This document shows positions 3,025 to 29,255 of a DNA stretch of 56,783 nucleotides, in pieces. Under the pieces are notes generated by a model that was not told the DNA's origin, did not search any database, and worked only from the letters and a program-made list of their open reading frames with translations. Made by a program: the position numbers and the translations under genes. The DNA comes from an uncultured Bacilli bacterium (GTDB lineage: Bacteria > Bacillota_I > Bacilli_A > RF39 > UBA660). The DNA is taken from contig CANQMM010000002.1 of assembly GCA_947624955.1 (NCBI GenBank), positions 1-56,783 of the forward strand. The letters run 5' to 3'. Within the stretch, counting starts at the first letter, position 1. The number at the start of each line of letters is the position of its first letter.

Positions 3025-5643
3025 CTAAGTATGGAGAATTAATTTATTTTTTCTTAAGTAAAATTTACGAATCCAATCAACGGGGATGACGGAGATGGCT
3101 AAGAATAGGACGATAAAGAATTCTTTAAAGGTTAGACCGTAGGTTCTAAATAAATCACCACCAAAGTAAATGAGATAGGTTTGGACAGTAATTATGAAGA
3201 CAATCACGGTAATAAATACTTTATTTTGATTGATGTTAGCTAAAAGATTAATTCTTTCGGTACGGGCATTAAAGGCATTAAATAATCCGATAAAGATAAA
3301 TAAGGCGAAATAAGCAGTCATTAAGTATTGATTAGCATCGCCAATTCTAATTAGGGCTTTGAATATCGGTAACTTTAGGAAAATAATACAAAGGATTGCG
3401 GAATATAAACCGGTAAATAATATTTCCCCATACATATAGTGATTAATGATGGGCTCGTCTTTTTTCTTAGGTGGTTCTTGCATATATTCTTTTAGAGCTG
3501 GTTCAAAGGAAAAGGCAATGCCGGCAAAGGTATCCATAATCATATTGATCCATAACATTTGAATAATTGTTACCGGAGTATTTACGCCAATAAAAGGGCC
3601 AATAATCGAGATAATCATCGCACACATATTGACAGTTAATTGAAAAATAATAAACTTACGAATACTCTTAAAAATAGTGCGGCCATAGAGAATGGCATTA
3701 CTAATCGATAGAATGTTGTCATCTAGGATAACGATATCCGAAGCTTCTTTACTTACTTCTGTACCACTACCCATGGCAAAACCGACATCGGCTTTTTTGA
3801 GGGCCGGAGCATCATTAACACCATCACCGGTCATTCCGACCACTAAATCTCTAGATTGCAAAAGTTTTACTAAACGGCTTTTATCACTAGGTAAACTCCG
3901 AGCAATGACTTTTAAACGGGGATAGAGTTTAAGGATAGCTTCATCGGACATTTGGGATAAATCTTGACTAGTAATCGCGATATCATCTTGGTTTTGGATA
4001 ATGCCACTTTCAATGGCAATCGATTTAGCAGTATCTAAATCATCGCCGGTTAGCATAATGGTTTGAATACCTGCTTCCGTAACTAATTTAATTCCCTCTT
4101 TAGTTTCTTCGCGGAGTTCATCTTTAATGAAGACTAAGCCAATAAAAGTAAAATTAGTTAAGTCTTGCGTTAGATGATAATTATCGCTATAAGCAAGAGC
4201 AATAACCCGCATTCCCCGACTCGTGGCGTGATGAATTTCTTCTTTTAAACCGGCGGTGTCAATCTTATAGGAGATGGTTCCACTAGGTAGTAAACATTTA
4301 TTACATTTATTTAAAATAATTTCCGGAGCGCCTTTTAAGTAAGTTAGGTAACGATCTTTTTTAATCGTTACTAAGGAGTATTTATCTTTACTGTTAAAAG
4401 GAATTTTGTTGACGATATTTGGCATTATTTCTTGCTGATTTTTGACAAATTTTAGTAAAGCTCGGTCGGTGATATTGCCACCGACAATTTCATCTTGTTC
4501 ATTATATTTACTAGCATTATTATAAATGAGGGACTCGCGGAAGATATGATGTAAAGTATCATAAGCGTAGAGGTCGCTTTCTTTTTTGAAATATTCTTTA
4601 TTACTGCTCATAAAGCCGATAACTTCTAGTTTGCCTTTAGTTAGAGTGCCGGTTTTATCCGTTAACAAGACATTTAGACTGCCAGCAGTTTCAATTCCGA
4701 CTAGTTTACGAACGAGGACATTACTTTTAAGCATCCGTTTCATATTGGAAGATAGGACTAAAGTAATCATCATTGGTAAACCTTCAGGAACAGCTACAAC
4801 GATGATGGTAACGCTTAAAGTTAAGGCATAAAGTAAATGGGAAAACATTAAGCGACCATTTAAAAGGGTCTCTTTAATTAGTGACCAATCGAAATGATTA
4901 GCAATAAAGATGACGGAGAAAAGATAAGATAAAGAAACTAAAAGAGCACCGACATAACCGATTTTACTAATAAATTCGGCAAGTCCTCTTAAACGTAGTT
5001 TTAGGGGACTGTCAGGAGTTACTTCTTGAAGGTCTTTAGCTAAACGACCATACTCCGTGTTAATCCCAACATTTTCGACTAGCATTAAAGCTTCCCCATT
5101 ATAGACCACACTACCCCGGTAGCAATAGTTCTCTCTTTTAATTTTACCGATGACTTTAGTCTTTTCAATTTCTTTGCTTTCCCCATTAAGGGCTGATTCA
5201 TCAACGGATAATTCGCCTTCTATCAGATAACCATCGGCGGGAATTTTATCGCCACTATTTAGAACAATAATGTCGCCGACAACAACATCATCAATTAAGA
5301 TTTCGGTAATTTGGTTATTTCTTTTGACTTTGGTTTTAATTTTACTCGACTCTTCTTGTAAGCGGGCAAAGGCGGCTTCACTACCATATTCGCTGACTGT
5401 GGATACTAAGGAGGCGATTAAAATAGAGGCGACAATACCGATAGTTTCATACCAATCAAAGTCTTGAAATAGAAATAATAATTTGATACCAAGAGCAATT
5501 AAGAGTATACGAATTATGGGGTCTCCTAAAGACTCCATAAATAATTTTAAAAAGCTATTTTTCTTTTGATAATTAATTAGATTAGTGCCATTTTTACGAC
5601 GAGAATTTAGTACTTCTTCATCTGTAAGTCCTGTATTTTTCAT
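3025..5643 (-). CDS. P-type Ca2+-transporting ATPase (P2 type)
   Basis: 872 aa. Motifs DKTGTLT, PEGLP and TGDGVNDAPALKKADVG, with a 10-TM pattern. Confidence 0.85.
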   Translation of the reverse strand: MKNTGLTDEEVLNSRRKNGTNLINYQKKNSFLKLFMESLGDPIIRILLIALGIKLLFLFQDFDWYETIGIVASILIASLVSTVSEYGSEAAFARLQEESSKIKTKVKRNNQITEILIDDVVVGDIIVLNSGDKIPADGYLIEGELSVDESALNGESKEIEKTKVIGKIKRENYCYRGSVVYNGEALMLVENVGINTEYGRLAKDLQEVTPDSPLKLRLRGLAEFISKIGYVGALLVSLSYLFSVIFIANHFDWSLIKETLLNGRLMFSHLLYALTLSVTIIVVAVPEGLPMMITLVLSSNMKRMLKSNVLVRKLVGIETAGSLNVLLTDKTGTLTKGKLEVIGFMSSNKEYFKKESDLYAYDTLHHIFRESLIYNNASKYNEQDEIVGGNITDRALLKFVKNQQEIMPNIVNKIPFNSKDKYSLVTIKKDRYLTYLKGAPEIILNKCNKCLLPSGTISYKIDTAGLKEEIHHATSRGMRVIALAYSDNYHLTQDLTNFTFIGLVFIKDELREETKEGIKLVTEAGIQTIMLTGDDLDTAKSIAIESGIIQNQDDIAITSQDLSQMSDEAILKLYPRLKVIARSLPSDKSRLVKLLQSRDLVVGMTGDGVNDAPALKKADVGFAMGSGTEVSKEASDIVILDDNILSISNAILYGRTIFKSIRKFIIFQLTVNMCAMIISIIGPFIGVNTPVTIIQMLWINMIMDTFAGIAFSFEPALKEYMQEPPKKKDEPIINHYMYGEILFTGLYSAILCIIFLKLPIFKALIRIGDANQYLMTAYFALFIFIGLFNAFNARTERINLLANINQNKVFITVIVFIITVQTYLIYFGGDLFRTYGLTFKEFFIVLFLAISVIPVDWIRKFYLRKNKLILHT

Positions 5644-22921: not shown

Positions 22922-24151
22922 CTATTTATGATTATTTTCTAATAAGTGCTTGACAGCATTGATGACACCGAGACGACCATATTCGTAAGTTAAACTGCCT
23001 TGTTGATAAGCAATATATGGCGGACGAATTGGGCCATCACAAGATAGTTCGATGGAAGATCCTTGAGTAAAGGAGCCAGAGGCCATAATTACTTGGTCAT
23101 CATAACCGGGCATATCCCATGGAATTGGTAGTGAATTAGAATCGATTGGGGAAGATATTTGAATTCCTTCGACATAGTGGATTAAATCTTCAGGATTATG
23201 GAAAATGATATTTTCTACGATATCTGCCCTTTCTTCGTTGTATTTTGGTTCGACATCATAACCTAGTTCACTAAGTAAAGCGCTAGTAAATACTGCGGTC
23301 TTTAAGCTACTAGCTACAACACTGGAAGCCATAAAAAGTCCTTCTAAGATTTCTTTGTTGGTATTAAGAGATGGTCCAACTTCTCTACCCTCGCCCGGTA
23401 AAGTTAGGCGTTCAGCCACTAACTCGATTAAGTCGTGACGCCCGACAACATAAGCACCGTTACTAGCGATACCGCCGCCCAAATTTTTAATTAAGGAACC
23501 AACGGCAATGTCGGCACCAACAGCAATTGGATTTTTGGTACCTACTAGTTCACAATAACAGTTATCAACCATAATGATTACGTCTTGATCAACTTTGCGG
23601 ATAGCAGCAATTACGGCTTGTAATTTTTCAATCGTAATACTTTTTCTAGTGGAATAACCTTTACTTCTTTGAATTTCGATAACTTTAATTTTTTGCTTTT
23701 TTAAAGTCTCCGTAATTTTGGAAATATCAAATTCATTGTCGACTAAATCAATTTGGGCATAGTTAATATGGAAACTTTTTAAAGAACTAGGATTATCTTT
23801 GATACCGATTACTTCGTGAAGGGTGTCATATGGTGTTCCCGTAATACTTAGTAAGGTATCGCCGGGACGCAAAAGGGCGAATAAGGTTACGGTTAGAGCG
23901 TGAGAACCGGATATAAATTGCGTCCGAACTAGGGCATCTTCCGCATCAAAGATTTCTGCATAGATTTTTTCAATGGTATCTCTACCTAGGTCATTGTAAC
24001 CATAACCGGTAGTCGAATGAAAGTGGGCTTCTGTTACGGCTTGATGCTGAAAAGCCGCTAGGACTTTTTCACTATTAATGAGACAGTCTTCATCAATTTT
24101 AATTAAAATAGGGCGAATTAATTCATCAACTTGCGAAATTTTATCTAGCAT
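22922..24151 (-). CDS. PLP-dependent YnbB / aluminium-resistance (Met-gamma-lyase-like) family protein
   Basis: Motifs TTGYGYNDLGRD, ISGSHAL and GSLIKNLGGG. ATG at 24151 (MLDKISQV) has GGAGGTG upstream. Confidence 0.75.
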   Translation of the reverse strand: MLDKISQVDELIRPILIKIDEDCLINSEKVLAAFQHQAVTEAHFHSTTGYGYNDLGRDTIEKIYAEIFDAEDALVRTQFISGSHALTVTLFALLRPGDTLLSITGTPYDTLHEVIGIKDNPSSLKSFHINYAQIDLVDNEFDISKITETLKKQKIKVIEIQRSKGYSTRKSITIEKLQAVIAAIRKVDQDVIIMVDNCYCELVGTKNPIAVGADIAVGSLIKNLGGGIASNGAYVVGRHDLIELVAERLTLPGEGREVGPSLNTNKEILEGLFMASSVVASSLKTAVFTSALLSELGYDVEPKYNEERADIVENIIFHNPEDLIHYVEGIQISSPIDSNSLPIPWDMPGYDDQVIMASGSFTQGSSIELSCDGPIRPPYIAYQQGSLTYEYGRLGVINAVKHLLENNHK

Positions 24152-24875
24152 TATTAACACCTCCATCAAGACGAATGATAGCATCATTCATATAAGTAAA
24201 TTGGGTCGAAACGGCAAAGACGACGGAAGCAATTTCTTCCGGGGTAGCAAAATGCTTTAACAAGATTTTTGATTCTTCTTTTTCTTGATAAATTGGACTC
24301 ATTGCGTTAGTAGACGGCGTTGCAATCCAACCGGGAGCAACAGCATTTACTCGGGTTTGTGGACTTAGAGCAATAGCTAAATTATGAGTTAAACTGATAA
24401 GGGCCGATTTAGAAGCATCATATTCTAGGGTAAGTGGGGAATATGTATCGAGGCCATTAGTGGAAGCGATGTTAGTAACTGCTGAGTTATTAGATAAGAT
24501 ACTAGTTAATTCTTTTGTAAGGATGAAAGGAGCGATAGTATTAACAGATAGAATTTTAGAAAAGTTAGAGATATCTTTTTCGTTAAATTCTTCTTCAACT
24601 GTATAGGCAGCATTATTGATAAGAACATCTAAACTAGAGTATTTTTCTTTAATTAGTTTAGTAAAATTAAAAGTCTCTGCTTCCCTACTTAAATCAACTT
24701 TAAAGATATCGACATTAATATGATAGGTACTCATAAGTTCTTCTCTAGCTTTTTTAGCTAAATCTTCTTTTGTATGATAAGTTATAATTAAATCATACCC
24801 GGCCTTGGCAAATTCTTTAGATATGGCTAGTCCTAAGGAATGATGCCCACCAGTAATTAAAGTTAATTTTTGCAT
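24141..24875 (-). CDS. short-chain dehydrogenase/reductase
   Basis: Motifs TGGHHSLG, NNAA and YDASK. ATG at 24875 (MQKLTLITGG) follows AAAGGTGA. Confidence 0.8.
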   Translation of the reverse strand: MQKLTLITGGHHSLGLAISKEFAKAGYDLIITYHTKEDLAKKAREELMSTYHINVDIFKVDLSREAETFNFTKLIKEKYSSLDVLINNAAYTVEEEFNEKDISNFSKILSVNTIAPFILTKELTSILSNNSAVTNIASTNGLDTYSPLTLEYDASKSALISLTHNLAIALSPQTRVNAVAPGWIATPSTNAMSPIYQEKEESKILLKHFATPEEIASVVFAVSTQFTYMNDAIIRLDGGVNNAR

Positions 24876-25003
24876 AAAATCACCTTTAAGCATTATAACA
24901 TATTAGTTTTATTTTATAAATTGTAAAGTTATGATAAAAGACGAACCGTTATGGCTCGCCTTAGCTAGCCCACCAACAATTGAGGTGGACCTAATTATTC
25001 ATA

Positions 25004-25156
25004 ATGAAGGAAACATATTAGTTTTTAATTCTATCCTTAATTATTCTTATCATCCTTTTACTTATAGCATTACTTTTCGTAATTTTAAATTTAAAATACC
25101 TAACTCAGCAACGATTTAGGTGGAACCCTAATATTAGGCTACACTCAATATGTTAA
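25004..25156 (+). pseudogene. decayed copy of the small hydrophobic-peptide ORF (in-frame TAG at codon 6)
   Basis: ATG AAG GAA ACA TAT TAG is followed by FLILSLIILIILLLIALLFVIL. The DNA aligns with 25336..25400 of the intact copy. Confidence 0.3.
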
Positions 25157-25190
25157 AATTGAATATTCCTTTTACGAAGTTTCCTTCATG
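25090..25190 (-). ncRNA. candidate small RNA, copy A
   Basis: Bounded by a consensus promoter (25196..25224) and by hairpin ACCTAA/TTAGGT followed by a U-rich tail on the minus strand. It is a direct repeat of copy B. Confidence 0.3.
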
Positions 25191-25195
25191 TAAAT

Positions 25196-25224
25196 ATTAT
25201 ACTCTTGTTTTAAAGTATTTACAA
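25196..25224 (-). promoter_or_regulatory. sigma-A-like promoter (sRNA copy A)
   Basis: Minus strand: TTGTAA, 17 nt spacer, TATAAT. The spacer is part of the palindrome ACTCTTGT..ACAAGAGT. Confidence 0.45.
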
Positions 25225-25227
25225 GAG

Positions 25228-25256
25228 TTGATTTACTTAAAGTAGAATGTTATATT
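25228..25256 (+). promoter_or_regulatory. sigma-A-like promoter for the small-peptide mRNA
   Basis: TTGATT, 17 nt spacer, TATATT with a TGt extended -10. It is back-to-back with the minus-strand promoter (3 nt between the -35 boxes). Confidence 0.45.
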
Positions 25257-25317
25257 TTAAGTAGGAACATTTAATAGTTGGGTGATTGCCAAATCTCTTT
25301 TGAGAGGAGGCGATAAT

Positions 25318-25401
25318 ATGAACAAGAAGGATTTTTTAATTCTGTCCTTAATCTTCTTGATCTTCCTATTAATATTATTACTTTTTATAGTTTTAATATA
25401 A
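25318..25401 (+). CDS. 27-aa hydrophobic peptide (candidate type I toxin)
   Basis: Not in the supplied ORF track because it is too short. Sequence MNKKDFLILSLIFLIFLLILLLFIVLI. Strong SD GAGAGGAGG lies 7 nt before the ATG. Confidence 0.45.
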   Translation: MNKKDFLILSLIFLIFLLILLLFIVLI

Positions 25402-25512
25402 AAAAATCACCTAACTCAAGCAACTTGATTTAGGTGAACACCAAAAATTATTGGCAACATCCAACAAGTGAAAATTGAATGTTCCTTTTTATTTTATGAA
25501 GTTTCCTTCAAT
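25400..25512 (-). ncRNA. candidate antisense small RNA, copy B
   Basis: Promoter at 25519..25547. The minus-strand terminator is TCACCTAA..TTAGGTGA (13 bp with 1 mismatch) + 7 U, ending at the stop codon of the peptide ORF. The 5' end has a GAAG-GAAA-CTTC hairpin, as in copy A. Confidence 0.35.
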
Positions 25513-25518
25513 AAATAC

Positions 25519-25547
25519 ATTTTATCATAAAATAATTATTTTGTAAA
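25519..25547 (-). promoter_or_regulatory. sigma-A-like promoter (sRNA copy B)
   Basis: Minus strand: TTTACA, 17 nt spacer, TAAAAT with a TGa extended -10. It starts 8 nt after the stop of the upstream gene. Confidence 0.4.
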
Positions 25548-25554
25548 TTTTAAC

Positions 25555-26124
25555 TTATTGATGCGGTTTTAATTTAAAGTATAAAGTTACATCGTCTTTA
25601 TCGGATACACAAGAAGAATATTGTGCCAAACGCCAATTGGATAACTCACCTTCTAAAGCTTTAGCTTCTTTACTAGGTTTTAATGCACGAATAAATTCTT
25701 TAATTCCCTGTCTTAAACCTAGAATCCAAGATAAGAGAGCAAGATCAATTAAAACTGCTAAAAAATTTTTGGCAGGAAAGACAAAAGTAGTAAATATTAA
25801 ATAAATCATTGTCCAAACAACATTTGATTTTTGGCCTTTAAAAATGGTATCGTACATTTTTTTAAAGAAATCACGGGCTTTATTTACTTCCGCTTTTTCT
25901 TGAGTATTCAATTCAATTATTCTAACTACTTTAAGATAATTAGTAGTTGCGGTATTAGCATCGCTTAACTTAACATATTTATCGGTTATTTTAGAAGTTA
26001 TATCATCTAAGGTAATTTCACTTTTAAAATGAATTCCCAATTCACTAACAGGAGTAGCATTAGCAATCGTAGCTATTCGAAAAGCTGTGACGTTATTAGT
26101 TTCGAATATTTCCTCAGTTTCCAT
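25555..26124 (-). CDS. hypothetical membrane protein (2 TM)
   Basis: 189-aa ORF with AAGGAGG upstream and a central hydrophobic hairpin VVWTMIYLIFTTFVF / FLAVLIDLALLSWILGL. No family recognised. Confidence 0.5.
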   Translation of the reverse strand: METEEIFETNNVTAFRIATIANATPVSELGIHFKSEITLDDITSKITDKYVKLSDANTATTNYLKVVRIIELNTQEKAEVNKARDFFKKMYDTIFKGQKSNVVWTMIYLIFTTFVFPAKNFLAVLIDLALLSWILGLRQGIKEFIRALKPSKEAKALEGELSNWRLAQYSSCVSDKDDVTLYFKLKPHQ

Positions 26125-26201
26125 AGAGTGCCTCCTTAAATATTTATGACAAATTATAACAAATTAGGGGATACTTAGCAAGAGTTTATACTCAATAATC
26201 T

Positions 26202-26750
26202 TTAATCATCTTCGATATCAGGTATTTTTTTATCGTCAATAATTTTAGATTTCTTGAGAACCGAAATGATTTTATTTTGATTTTCCACTAGTTTTTCCAA
26301 ACGGTCATAGAGTTGCTCTAAGATTAATTCACTTTTTAAATCAGTGTGATAATCGTTTTGGTTACGAATAGTATCTTTTTTTGCTTGCCGGTTTTGACTC
26401 ATCATAATAATGGGAGCTTGTAGAGCAGCAATACAAGATAAAAGTAAATTTAATAAAATAAAGGGGAAAGGATCGATAGCTTTATTTACTAAGATCATAC
26501 CGTTGATAATAATCCAAAAAAGGAGAAAACAACTAAAACAAATAATAAAAGTCCAACTACCAAATATTGCCGATAGTTTATCGGCAGCTTTATCGCCAAA
26601 GGTCATTTTAGCATCACTTTCTTTATCGACATCGATAGAGATAGGATTATTCAGTAACAAATCGATTATTTCTTCTTCATCTTTTTCTTCTAGATTTTGA
26701 TTTAACAACATTTTTACTATTTCTTTTTTATTTTTTTCCATATTTTTCAC
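26202..26750 (-). CDS. DUF1003-family membrane protein
   Basis: Motifs FGDKAADKLSAIFGSWTFI and LQAPIIMMSQNRQ, with a C-terminal coiled-coil segment. Confidence 0.65.
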   Translation of the reverse strand: MKNMEKNKKEIVKMLLNQNLEEKDEEEIIDLLLNNPISIDVDKESDAKMTFGDKAADKLSAIFGSWTFIICFSCFLLFWIIINGMILVNKAIDPFPFILLNLLLSCIAALQAPIIMMSQNRQAKKDTIRNQNDYHTDLKSELILEQLYDRLEKLVENQNKIISVLKKSKIIDDKKIPDIEDD

Positions 26751-26819
26751 TTAGCCTTTCCTATATATTATAACACTCACGCATAAAAAAAGTAGAATAG
26801 TTTAATTCTACTTAATTAC

Positions 26820-27263
26820 TTAGTAATTACGACTCTGAAAAGATTTAATAATGGTACCGGTTAGAGCATCGATATAGTATTCATATTCCATACTTTGGTA
26901 ATCAAAATCGACCTCGTAAACGGTTTTACCATATTTATAATCTAGCTCAATATCAATGTCGTAGACATTATTTTTACTCATAGATGCATCATTGAGGGCA
27001 ATATCTAAAGCTTGGTCTTTAGTTATATAATTTTGATTATCCGGTGTTGAATTAAAGTAATCATCTTCATCGATGTCTTTACTAGGGACAAAATTATTGA
27101 CCCGGTCACGGGATAAGTCGTGGATATCTTCTCTTTCTTCGTGAAATTCGATGATGAAAAAAATCCCAAACCCAATTAATAAAACGATTACGATTACGAG
27201 TAAAATAATTATATTTTTTAAATTTTTATTTTCTTTTTCCACAGATAACCCTTCTTTCTCCAA
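26820..27263 (-). CDS. membrane-anchored PepSY-domain protein
   Basis: N-terminal TM. C-terminal ITKDQALDIALNDA ... YEVDFDYQSMEYEYYIDALTGTII is PepSY-like. Confidence 0.6.
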   Translation of the reverse strand: MEKEGLSVEKENKNLKNIIILLVIVIVLLIGFGIFFIIEFHEEREDIHDLSRDRVNNFVPSKDIDEDDYFNSTPDNQNYITKDQALDIALNDASMSKNNVYDIDIELDYKYGKTVYEVDFDYQSMEYEYYIDALTGTIIKSFQSRNY

Positions 27264-27281
27264 GTAGATTATAACACAGAT

Positions 27282-29255
27282 TTACTTTTTAAGCATTTTT
27301 ATGTATTCACAAATTAGGTTAGCTGTGGCTTGTTTACCGATGCGAGAATCGATACATAAATCATAGTTATCGACTTTTCCCCAAGTTTGACCGGAAATGG
27401 TTTGATAGTAACTAGCACGATTTTTATCTGATTTATTAATATTTTTTAAAGCTTTAGTAGGGGTATCGTGATACATTTCGACGATGTTTTTTACGCGGTA
27501 ATCTTGGGGAGCATAAATGAATATTTTAAGGACATCAGGGTTATCACGCAAAACATAGTCGGCTGCTCGCCCTACTATAACACACGAACCTTCTTGAGCA
27601 ATCTTTTTGATGATCTTTTCTTGGGCAGCGATAGCATATTTTACCGGCGATGTTGTTAGATATAGGTCATGTAAGTGGTCTTGACTACGATTAATATCCG
27701 AGATAAATTCTTGAGCTAAGCCACTTTCTTCAGCGGCTAAAGCAGTAACTTCTTTATAGTAGTAAGGGATATTTAACTTTTGAGCAACCAACTCGCCGAT
27801 GGCTTTCCCTTGGCTTCCGTGCATTCTAGCAATTGTAATGATAACTCCTTTTTTAGACGGTTTAAGATATGAGGATGATGTTTCTTCTTCGGAAGGAGTA
27901 AGATTTTTAAAAAAGTTACTGATTAATATAATCGTTACAATCATTCCGAGTACATCAGCTATCGGGGCAGCTATTAAAGCACCTTGAATGCCATAGTATT
28001 TGGGTAAAATGATTACTAAAGGTACAAAGAAGATAATGTCTCTTGCAAGAGAGACAGCAGCAGCTTTAAAAGGTTCACCTACAGCTTGAAAGAAAATAGA
28101 AGTTAATTTAATTAAGCAAGTAAGCGTTACTAACATTAGAAATAAACGGAAAGTTAAAACGGCAAATTCCATATATAATTCTTCGTTAGTACCAAATATT
28201 TTAATGATAACACTTGGACAAAGTTCAAAGATGATAGTTGATACAATACCAACAATAAGGGAGATACTAACTACTTTTTTGAAGGTTTCTTTAACGCGCT
28301 TTATATTTTTGGCGCCATAGTTATAACCGAGAATTGGTTGCGCTCCTAAAATAATACCGACAATAATATTGATAACGATTGAGAATACTTTCATTGTAAT
28401 ACCGATTACAGCGATAGGAATATCAGAACCATATTTACTCTGGGCTCCATACTTAGCTAACATAATATTACAAACTAGCGAAATTATTACAATACTCATT
28501 TGGGTAATAAAGGTAGAGATGCCTAATTTGATAACATTTTGAAAATTTTGGAAATCGATTTTAAAACTTTCTTTACATAATTTAAAAGTTTTAGTTTTAG
28601 TGTAATAAATTAGGGATAAGATGAGAGTGGCAATTTGACCGATAATGGTTGCATAAGCTGCGCCCTTTATTCCTAAATGGAAAGTAAAAATAAATATGGG
28701 GTCTAAGATGATATTGATAATGGCACCTACGGCCGTAGTTGCCATAGAAAATCCGGGAGAACCATCGGCTCTAATAACGGCGTTCATACTATTACCTAAC
28801 ATATAAACGGGAATAGCAGCGAGGATGATAGTGTAATAATCGCGAGCGAGTCCGATACTTTGGCTACTAGCACCAAATAGATATAATAATTGGTCTTTAA
28901 AAATAAATCCTAAGATTAAGAAAATAATGCTAATAATAAAAGTAATTAAGATACTATTACCAATGGATTTATGGGCATTTTCCGTATCTTGTCTACCTTG
29001 ACACAAAGATAAATAGGCGGCCGCTCCATCACCAAAAGCCCAAGCAAAAGCAACAGCGATGATAGTAATGGGATACACTACTCCGGTAGCGGCATTACCT
29101 AAATAACCTAATTCGCTATTACCAATAAATATTTGGTCCACTATATTATATAGGGAACTTATGAGTAATGATAAAATACACGGTATAGAAAATTTGAATA
29201 GTAGTTTGGATATTTTTTCGGTTCCTAAAAATTGATTGTTTTCTTGATTTTTCAT
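27282..29255 (-). CDS. MATE-family efflux transporter fused to a cytidylate-kinase-like domain
   Basis: About 450 aa with 12 TM and a MATE pattern (LISSLYNIVDQIFIG). The C-terminal ~185 aa are ITIARMHGSQGKAIGELVAQKLNIPYYYKE ... CVIVGRAADYVL (cytidylate_kin2-like). Confidence 0.75.
   Translation of the reverse strand: MKNQENNQFLGTEKISKLLFKFSIPCILSLLISSLYNIVDQIFIGNSELGYLGNAATGVVYPITIIAVAFAWAFGDGAAAYLSLCQGRQDTENAHKSIGNSILITFIISIIFLILGFIFKDQLLYLFGASSQSIGLARDYYTIILAAIPVYMLGNSMNAVIRADGSPGFSMATTAVGAIINIILDPIFIFTFHLGIKGAAYATIIGQIATLILSLIYYTKTKTFKLCKESFKIDFQNFQNVIKLGISTFITQMSIVIISLVCNIMLAKYGAQSKYGSDIPIAVIGITMKVFSIVINIIVGIILGAQPILGYNYGAKNIKRVKETFKKVVSISLIVGIVSTIIFELCPSVIIKIFGTNEELYMEFAVLTFRLFLMLVTLTCLIKLTSIFFQAVGEPFKAAAVSLARDIIFFVPLVIILPKYYGIQGALIAAPIADVLGMIVTIILISNFFKNLTPSEEETSSSYLKPSKKGVIITIARMHGSQGKAIGELVAQKLNIPYYYKEVTALAAEESGLAQEFISDINRSQDHLHDLYLTTSPVKYAIAAQEKIIKKIAQEGSCVIVGRAADYVLRDNPDVLKIFIYAPQDYRVKNIVEMYHDTPTKALKNINKSDKNRASYYQTISGQTWGKVDNYDLCIDSRIGKQATANLICEYIKMLKK

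Follow-up and report, generated by a model that had tools for sequence, protein, structure and literature searches.

Is the duplicated unit at about positions 25,004 to 25,550 of contig CANQMM010000002.1, from an uncultured Bacilli bacterium, a toxin gene with its antisense RNA, a gene for an ordinary small membrane protein, a regulatory RNA gene with a passenger, or a non-coding repeat? The stretch analysed here, called the window in what follows, is 56,783 nucleotides (nt) long, and the unit is present in it as an upstream copy A and a downstream copy B. The first-pass annotation had proposed a candidate family of type I toxin-antitoxin (TA) loci; every prediction of that proposal that could be tested at the level of sequence held, and its functional part is argued by analogy. 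The module probably represents a new, unannotated family, type I TA-like and under 3′-overlapping antisense control, which uncultured gut Bacilli carry on their chromosomes. Both genes, that of the peptide and that of the antisense RNA, are very likely real, and it seems fairly likely, by analogy with known loci, that their products act as toxin and antitoxin.

A peptide gene and a convergent RNA gene

Copy B comprises a peptide gene with its predicted mRNA, which includes 5′ and 3′ untranslated regions (UTRs), and a convergent gene for a predicted small RNA (sRNA), with the following features:

25228..25256, plus strand: mRNA promoter TTGATT-17-TATATT, TG-extended (promoter scan)
25263..25495, plus strand: predicted mRNA of ~235 nt, made of 5′ UTR, open reading frame (ORF) and 3′ UTR, with a conserved terminal T-run at 25486-25495
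25302-25310, plus strand: Shine-Dalgarno (SD) sequence GAGAGGAGG, 7 nt from the ATG (direct sequence reading)
25318..25401, plus strand: peptide gene (candidate toxin), encoding the 27-amino-acid hydrophobic peptide MNKKDFLILSLIFLIFLLILLLFIVLI
25400..25512, minus strand: predicted antisense RNA, sRNA B, ~113 nt (candidate antitoxin; fold and covariance model), made of a 5′ hairpin GAAGGAAACUUC (25509..25498), an A-rich linker, hairpin 2, hairpin 3 and a terminator
25400..25437, minus strand: intrinsic terminator of sRNA B, a hairpin at 25407-25437 followed by a 7-U tract at 25406..25400
25547..25519, minus strand: promoter of sRNA B, TTTACA-17-TGnTAAAAT (promoter scan)

The ORF at 25318..25401, its strong SD and its promoter at 25228..25256 had been pointed out in the first-pass annotation and are all read where it placed them; the minus-strand promoter TTTACA-17-TAAAAT with its TG element and the terminator whose 7 U adjoin the stop codon, which it had also described, are present in the sequence. 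The ends of the mRNA were deduced from the promoter position and the T-run.

Relatives were sought with an exact pattern composed of two blocks that the window copies have in common (GAATRTTCC, followed after 0-12 nt by TTTTAYGAAGTTTCCTTC), which matched 43 loci in 37 species-representative genomes as well as 43 metagenome contigs, many of them labelled human gut. From 46 sRNA copies a covariance model was built, which recovered 59 sRNA copies in the window and the 43 genome loci (E ≤ 3e-8), 12 of them without the exact pattern. A hydrophobic ORF lies ~158 nt upstream of the motif in 33 of the 46 pattern matches, and one is present in 10 of the 12 additional copies and in 32 of the 43 assessable metagenome matches. 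The co-occurrence of ORF and sRNA in related genomes, which had been put forward as a check on the TA proposal, was thus borne out by the nucleotide and covariance-model searches: the two stand together at fixed spacing in 44 of the 59 copies, across 37 species-level genomes. The unit of ~290 bp has both promoters, SD, ORF and sRNA all intact in about three quarters of the copies, and in some 25% the sRNA is kept and the ORF or its start is lost.

The hydrophobic ORFs are 25-33 codons long and encode a charged N-terminus followed by a hydrophobic stretch of ~20 residues. Most of the peptides fall into two classes, namely class 1, which includes that of the window (M[NS]KKDFLI.SL...LLF.VL., 27 amino acids), and class 2 (MKKR.F.IK.LRYISIILLLL...VIKK, 30 amino acids), with few outside both, such as MTKREKALYAIISLLFILIFIILFK; the window peptide contains neither Pro nor Gly. 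Within classes, the ratio of non-synonymous to synonymous substitution rates (dN/dS) is 0.18 for class 1 and 0.27 for the other main class, and variability by codon position follows the order 3 > 1 > 2, from which it follows that the ORF is translated; shifted frames give stops or ratios of 0.7-3.7. Judged by these substitutions, the ORF is under purifying selection and evolves as a protein. A GGAGG-type SD precedes it in 33 of 33 intact homologues, where it is predicted to be mostly base-paired (mean unpaired probability 0.18 in the homologous modules). The plus-strand promoter occupies the same position in 32 of 33 intact homologous modules, and its -10 box stands 6-9 nt ahead of the conserved GGAAC 5′ end, so that the transcript is expected to start at the first paired base of its fold. 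Compared with shuffled sequences, the predicted mRNA folds with z = -6.6, and its 5′ and 3′ ends are paired with each other.

On the opposite strand, the arms of the sRNA B terminator (25407-25420 and 25424-25437) are 14 nt each and 93% complementary, the U-tract of the hairpin is found on the minus strand only, and two of its seven U overlap the peptide stop codon TAA (25399-25401). The sRNA B fold scores z = -6.2 against shuffles, and the covariance model matches 25388-25516 with 111.7 bits. The sRNA promoter keeps its position in 45 of 46 copies despite a freely varying spacer sequence: a TTGnnn -35 box is separated by 16-17 nt (17 in all but two) from a -10 box of the TAnnnT type, which carries a TGn element in 36 of 46 copies and is followed by the 5′ hairpin after 8-10 nt in 45 of 46 (in 36 after 10 nt). 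Compensatory changes are found in the terminator stem; at one pair, for instance, CG has become UA in 13 sequences. At three positions of hairpin 2, U.G pairs occur in 23, 11 and 40 sequences; on the plus strand they would be A.C mismatches, and the hairpin is therefore specific to the minus strand; for class 1 its predicted stability is ~-10 kcal/mol on the minus strand versus ~-2.5 on the plus strand. Among the exact-pattern matches, hairpin 1 owes its invariance to the search itself, and three copies found by the model only show a double compensatory change in it, from GAAG/CTTC to GAGA/TCTC. The ~45 nt at the start of the sRNA hardly differ between the copies recovered or between peptide classes. 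These features support a conserved antisense RNA gene with its own predicted promoter and terminator. Since the two genes converge and overlap, the sRNA is complementary to the mRNA 3′ UTR; the predicted overlap extends over 25400-25495, with the same layout in all intact homologues.

Pairing between the ends of the predicted mRNA

In the minimum-energy fold of the plus strand, the first 30 nt of the mRNA (25263-25292) pair with the 3′ UTR at 25451-25486, directly before the T-run, forming a 5′-3′ panhandle that was absent from the first-pass description. The latter had placed a hairpin followed by a T-run at 25455-25495; the T-run is there and conserved, and what had been taken for a hairpin is better regarded as the 3′ arm of a helix formed over a long range with the 5′ UTR. 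The two arms are:

25263..25292, plus strand: 5′ arm of the long-range helix, AGGAACATTTAAT and TTGGGTGATTGCCAA (RNAduplex, covariation)
25451..25486, plus strand: 3′ arm of the long-range helix, TTGGCAACATCCAAC, an 8-nt bulge AAGTGAAA (25466-25473) and ATTGAATGTTCCT (fold, covariation)

A duplex of ~27 bp between 5′ UTR and 3′ UTR is found in every intact module. Its energy according to RNAduplex is -33.7 kcal/mol in the window and -34.8 kcal/mol on average over 33 modules, versus a mean of -28.3 kcal/mol for non-cognate arms; the corresponding duplexes of the opposite strand also average -28.3 kcal/mol, and the plus strand is favoured in 31 of 33 modules, all of these figures being indicative rather than exact, as the sequences are phylogenetically related and Wilcoxon tests and shuffles overstate their independence. 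Helix LR1 has frequent G.U pairs and compensatory changes from AU to GC or UA at three pairs. RNAalifold on the concatenated arms recovered LR1 alone; helix LR2 was misaligned by indels and was therefore scored sequence by sequence. All of 44 modules retain it, with 42 different pairs of arms and with 565 Watson-Crick and 61 G.U pairs; among them is the divergent L047:3247, whose arms are of unrelated sequence. The compensatory pattern in the panhandle arms is unambiguous.

The mRNA 5′ UTR is an inverted near-copy of part of the 3′ UTR and is therefore a direct near-copy of the antisense RNA, which is itself complementary to the 3′ arm of the long-range helix. The 8-nt bulge of the panhandle is the complement of the loop of sRNA hairpin 2. 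When the 3′ UTR was modelled as occupied, the unpaired probability of the mRNA 5′ end rose from 0.06 to 0.47.

Decayed copies, relatives and neighbouring genes

Copy A (~25004-25224) is ~75-80% identical to copy B over ~190 nt (blastn, E = 4e-26), and blastn revealed no copy beyond these two in the window. Its features, with that of a third partial copy upstream, are:

24962-24989, no strand assigned: remnant of a third copy, a terminator-like hairpin with 79% identity to the terminator of copy A
25004..25096, plus strand: remnant of peptide gene A, in the same frame as copy B, with TAG at codon 6 (25019-25021)
25080..25195, minus strand: sRNA A, orphan antitoxin candidate (covariance-model match, 87.6 bits)
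25176-25187: hairpin GAAGTTTCCTTC, common to copy B
25224..25196, minus strand: promoter of sRNA A, TTGTAA-17-TATAAT (promoter scan), identical in the closest relative, L026

The upstream repeat at ~25004..25195 had been recognized in the first-pass annotation together with its perfect minus-strand promoter and the shared GAAGTTTCCTTC hairpin, and its decay had been described as a TAG at codon 6, a lost stop and a weaker terminator; alignment and inspection agree with this account. The remnant of peptide gene A has no promoter, 5′ UTR arm, properly spaced SD or stop codon. Its nearest SD, GAGGTGGA at 24981-24988, is 15 nt from the ATG, and a plus-strand promoter was found neither by eye around ~24977-25005 nor in the promoter scan. 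The fold of sRNA A is weaker (z = -2.4), as is its U-tract. As far as its sequence tells, copy A is a decayed module in which the sRNA gene alone is left. Because the first ~45 nt are nearly the same across copies, sRNA A may add to the antitoxin dosage.

Traces of further units are present around copy A. On the minus strand, the partial copy at 24962-24989 folds with -14.4 kcal/mol. An 11-nt sequence at the left edge of copy A (25002-25014), ATGAAGGAAAC, repeats the sRNA 5′ end in inverted orientation, and a stretch of 14 nt, AACATATTAGTTTT, occurs identically at 24897-24910 and at 25012-25025. Together these fragments look like the products of past rearrangement or recombination among former tandem units. 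Between the remnants of the module and the dehydrogenase gene's promoter there is a second terminator-like hairpin on the minus strand, at 24940-24960 (GGCGAGCC-AUAA-GGUUCGUC, then UUUUAU), which may insulate the dehydrogenase gene against read-through from sRNA A.

The closest relative, L026, is a metagenome-assembled genome (MAG) locus with the isolate label 'Lapin', and can be considered a near-orthologue: the same dehydrogenase gene flanks it (84% amino-acid identity), and the same pair of a decayed and an intact module is present, including the TAG codon of copy A. The sRNA A promoter and the mRNA promoter of copy B are placed back to back, 3 nt apart, as the first-pass annotation had noted. 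The palindrome ACTCTTGT/ACAAGAGT that it had reported around them is probably incidental, since it is not kept in L026. Homology to L026 ends just past the -35 box of the sRNA B promoter, beyond which other genes follow. This break in synteny lies at 25550-25560 of the window and 2090-2130 of L026; on the far side, the window has a gene for a 189-amino-acid protein and then DUF1003, PepSY and MatE genes, and L026 has genes for a histidine kinase, a response regulator and an ABC permease. From this comparison, the window module sits at a rearrangement or island junction. The 189-amino-acid neighbour (25555..26124, minus strand) has a hydrophobic segment and no Pfam or NCBIfam match; it is absent from all 43 related genome loci and was found in six short metagenome contigs only, which are all 100% identical over the locus and thus of no use for comparison. 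Further along, 27282-29255 (minus strand) is an ORF of 657 amino acids for which the precomputed annotation of contig L001 gives Pfam matches to both MatE (efflux) and a cytidylate-kinase-like domain (PF13189), an unusual fusion. Flanking genes are unrelated across all loci, with 220 clusters among 267 ORFs, and the unit is therefore autonomous rather than the UTR of any gene.

Most of the 37 genomes are MAGs under the label uncultured Bacilli, with Erysipelotrichales/Erysipelotrichaceae, Firmicutes, Tenericutes and Mycoplasma sp. as further labels, and 'Clostridium sp. CAG:433', 'Firmicutes bacterium CAG:822' and Candidatus Caccenecus are among the genomes; the hosts, where evident, are goat, roe deer and human (Hadza). 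The exact pattern had no match in viral contigs, and blastn found none in plasmids or phages. Tandem arrays of 2-3 units with a period of 340-420 nt occur at seven loci (L033, L014, L049, L042, L037, L020 and L047). On two long contigs, ODYI01000102.1 (134 kb; L084, L087 and L092) and ERZ1673738.9 (324 kb; L056 and L085), 2-3 copies each are found at least several kb apart, so that the family is both tandem and dispersed within one genome. Class 1 modules were also found in two MAGs labelled Muribaculaceae, of the Bacteroidota (L015 and L037, on CAZWKF010000062.1 and CAZVIQ010000054.1, of 9 kb and 5 kb), for which contamination during binning seems more likely than spread across phyla. In L047, a T-box leader unrelated to the module (3745-3957, plus strand, 141 bits) lies ~60 nt from the sRNA copy at 3556-3690 and ~380 nt from that at 3247-3364, and thus modules sit among ordinary housekeeping operons.

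The module, its rivals and known systems

For a TA-like module, the asymmetric decay of the family, in which the sRNA is kept and the ORF lost, would be as expected of a harmful peptide and a protective RNA. Several observations weigh against this reading. The peptide matches no known toxin family, so that calling it a toxin is a matter of analogy alone, and both transcripts, including their ends, are predictions. The sRNA 5′ region appears invariant in part because the search pattern demanded an exact match, and the kinship of the sequences makes the statistics overstate their independence. To reach its end, the mRNA as predicted must read through the sRNA terminator hairpin, and its final U-run is preceded by a weak local hairpin or by the long-range helix, which makes for an unusual intrinsic terminator. 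No conserved pairing between the sRNA and the translation start was found when RNAduplex was applied to the sRNA and the 5′ part of the mRNA, the long and loose duplexes obtained for the start region (mean z -1.8) being treated as no evidence. Moreover, SD accessibility is unchanged (0.18 versus 0.15) when the 3′ UTR is modelled as blocked. Direct translational control by the sRNA is therefore not supported, and control through mRNA decay is favoured. An SR4-like structural switch of translation by the sRNA was dropped as a candidate, as blocking the 3′ UTR leaves the SD equally accessible.

It is unlikely that the ORF encodes a benign small membrane protein, such as a regulator or a subunit of a membrane complex, tuned by a cis-antisense RNA and forming no addiction module. 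Many small hydrophobic proteins of Gram-positive bacteria are non-toxins, and both the purifying selection on the peptide and its lack of similarity to known toxin families would suit such a function. However, the gene occurs in several diverged copies per genome, tandem and dispersed, it has no conserved partner gene adjoining it, its ORF is often lost when the antisense RNA is kept, and its ribosome-binding site is predicted to be occluded in an mRNA locked end to end; such traits are typically those of selfish type I modules and would not be expected in a housekeeping subunit of the membrane. Still less probable is that the sRNA is the primary functional gene, a trans-acting regulator of the clade, with the peptide gene as a passenger overlapping its 3′ end. 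The sRNA-only copies, about a quarter of the total, in which promoter, hairpins and terminator are intact, might point in this direction, as might the near identity of the ~45 nt at the sRNA 5′ end across peptide classes, but this conservation is in part imposed by the search pattern, and pairing with the mRNA 5′ UTR places a constraint of its own on these bases. No trans target turned up, no search aimed at one having been made. In intact modules that 5′ UTR covaries with the sRNA-complementary region, and the two genes are therefore functionally tied.

A non-coding origin of the unit is very improbable. The repeat might be a mobile or recombinogenic element with inverted repeats, akin to a miniature inverted-repeat transposable element, or, as the alternative offered in the first-pass annotation had it, an intergenic repeat together with the 3′ UTR and terminator of gene 25555..26124; in either case the ORF would be fortuitous. 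The ORF is indeed flanked by inverted repeats, the unit is multi-copy with sharp edges relative to L026, and the sRNA terminator lies downstream of gene 25555..26124 in the same orientation. These features notwithstanding, a fortuitous ORF does not agree with dN/dS values of 0.18-0.27 and the 3 > 1 > 2 order of codon-position variability; the G.U pairs are strand-specific, so the helices act at the RNA level, and the promoters are conserved and lie outside the inverted repeats. Plasmids, phages and viral contigs gave no matches. The link to the neighbouring gene fails in particular, given that the neighbour differs in every locus, the 189-amino-acid protein being absent from all 43 genome loci, and that L026 homology stops at the sRNA promoter.

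If the module is a TA-like locus, the ~235-nt mRNA would encode a single-helix membrane peptide of 25-33 amino acids, the presumed toxin, and the convergent ~115-nt RNA, whose full complementarity to the 3′ UTR runs from the stop codon as far as the terminal U-run, would be the presumed antitoxin. On its own, the panhandle mRNA would be stable, because both of its ends are paired, and poorly translated, because the SD is occluded. First contact would probably involve the loop of sRNA hairpin 2 and the 8-nt bulge left open in the panhandle, after which the sRNA would zip up ~100 bp with the 3′ UTR, displacing the 5′ UTR and exposing the mRNA 5′ end. The long duplex might then be a substrate of RNase III and lead to degradation of the mRNA, as for RatA, SR4, SR5 and SR6, and the exposed 5′ end might offer an RNase J-type substrate as a second route of decay. 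Should sRNA synthesis stop, the more stable mRNA would outlast the sRNA and the peptide would be made.

A more specific version, which we regard as doubtful, would be a three-way competition undescribed for type I systems, in which the 5′ UTR and the sRNA, as near-copies of each other, both pair with the same 3′ arm. In such a competition, closure of the panhandle could both terminate and stabilize the toxin mRNA, since the long-range helix directly precedes the sole plus-strand U-run. The sRNA, as a mimic of the 5′ UTR, would decide between a sealed, long-lived and silent mRNA and an opened, rapidly degraded one. The sRNA copies that lack an ORF would be 'anti-addiction' antitoxins shared across paralogous modules, a role made possible by the ~45-nt sRNA 5′ region that all peptide classes have in common.

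The family is invisible to current annotation, as no RNA or protein model matches it, and it is present in dozens of uncultured small-genome gut Bacilli of humans and livestock. The covariance model and the peptides provide seeds for annotating such genomes. For work in heterologous hosts, the module offers a defined RNA architecture, namely a panhandle mRNA, an antisense RNA against one of its arms and a possible loop-bulge contact, and the peptides could serve as counter-selection or kill-switch parts.

Profile searches did not connect the module to any described family. Rfam at E ≤ 10 gave chance eukaryotic matches only for 24000-27000, and at the gathering threshold only tRNA and T-box matches for the window and five loci. 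Pfam and NCBIfam had nothing for the window peptide at E ≤ 1, nor for five other members at E ≤ 10. A query of 5.8 billion protein clusters with an artificial 46-amino-acid, upstream-extended translation of the 27-amino-acid peptide gave 10 matches only, all of them unnamed, N-terminally mis-extended ORFs.

In architecture, the module resembles the Gram-positive type I families with 3′-overlapping antisense RNAs, such as txpA/RatA and bsrE/G/H (PMC8594479). The 3′-overlapping antitoxins of B. subtilis are reported to act through mRNA decay via the long duplex (PMC3834814; PMC5848175; PMC8594479). With txpA/RatA, bsrG/SR4, bsrE/SR5 and yonT/SR6 the module has in common a toxin mRNA and an sRNA of ~100 nt that converge and overlap at their 3′ ends, a small hydrophobic peptide, an SD occluded by mRNA structure, and an antitoxin expected to act mainly by promoting mRNA decay through a long duplex. 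The likeness is architectural only, with no sequence or profile similarity of peptide or RNA, and homology to TxpA/RatA, BsrG/SR4, BsrE/SR5 or YonT/SR6 was rejected in view of the lack of Rfam, Pfam or NCBIfam matches. Unlike in these systems, the overlap takes in only the 3′ UTR and 2 nt of the stop codon and excludes the ORF, the sRNA targets the very region with which the mRNA 5′ end is paired, and the module is not on prophages or plasmids in the collections searched.

Convergent promoters, a toxin mRNA of ~230 nt and an SD-sequestering stem-loop are also found in Fst/RNA II (par, pAD1), SprA1/SprA1AS and Lpt. In par/Fst, the extreme 5′ end of the toxin mRNA is sequestered in an intramolecular helix, the 5′-UH, which stabilizes the transcript, and the defining features of Fst are a PXXXG(C) motif, a charged C-terminal tail, DRa and DRb as direct repeats, and a bidirectional terminator (PMC7472228). 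The helix of the module mRNA likewise sequesters the extreme 5′ end, and the peptide shares with Fst an N-terminal Lys/Asp pair ahead of the hydrophobic helix. Class 1 peptides, in contrast, have no PXXXG motif or charged C-terminal tail and no Fst profile match; the repeat of the module is inverted, unlike DRa/DRb, so that the sRNA resembles the 5′ UTR rather than being complementary to the start region; the terminator U-tract is on one strand; and the sRNA is ~115 nt long versus ~40 nt. Membership in the Fst/RNA II (par) family was rejected for want of the PXXXG motif and tail, the direct repeats and the bidirectional terminator.

In the Gram-negative hok/sok and aapA1/IsoA1 systems, the full-length toxin mRNA is held closed and poorly translated by a 5′-3′ long-range helix. 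Long-distance pairing between 5′ and 3′ ends is the only likeness of the module to them: their antisense RNAs bind the 5′ region after 3′ processing, whereas that of the module is complementary to the 3′ arm, and the module differs from hok further in its lack of a HOK_GEF match and in its host clade. Membership in the Hok/Sok or AapA1/IsoA1 groups was rejected, as the antisense RNA maps to the 3′ UTR and there is no Hok-type toxin. What the module shares with type I TA loci in general is a coding hydrophobic peptide of fewer than 60 amino acids, a structured mRNA, a predicted antisense RNA gene, and tandem and decayed copies.

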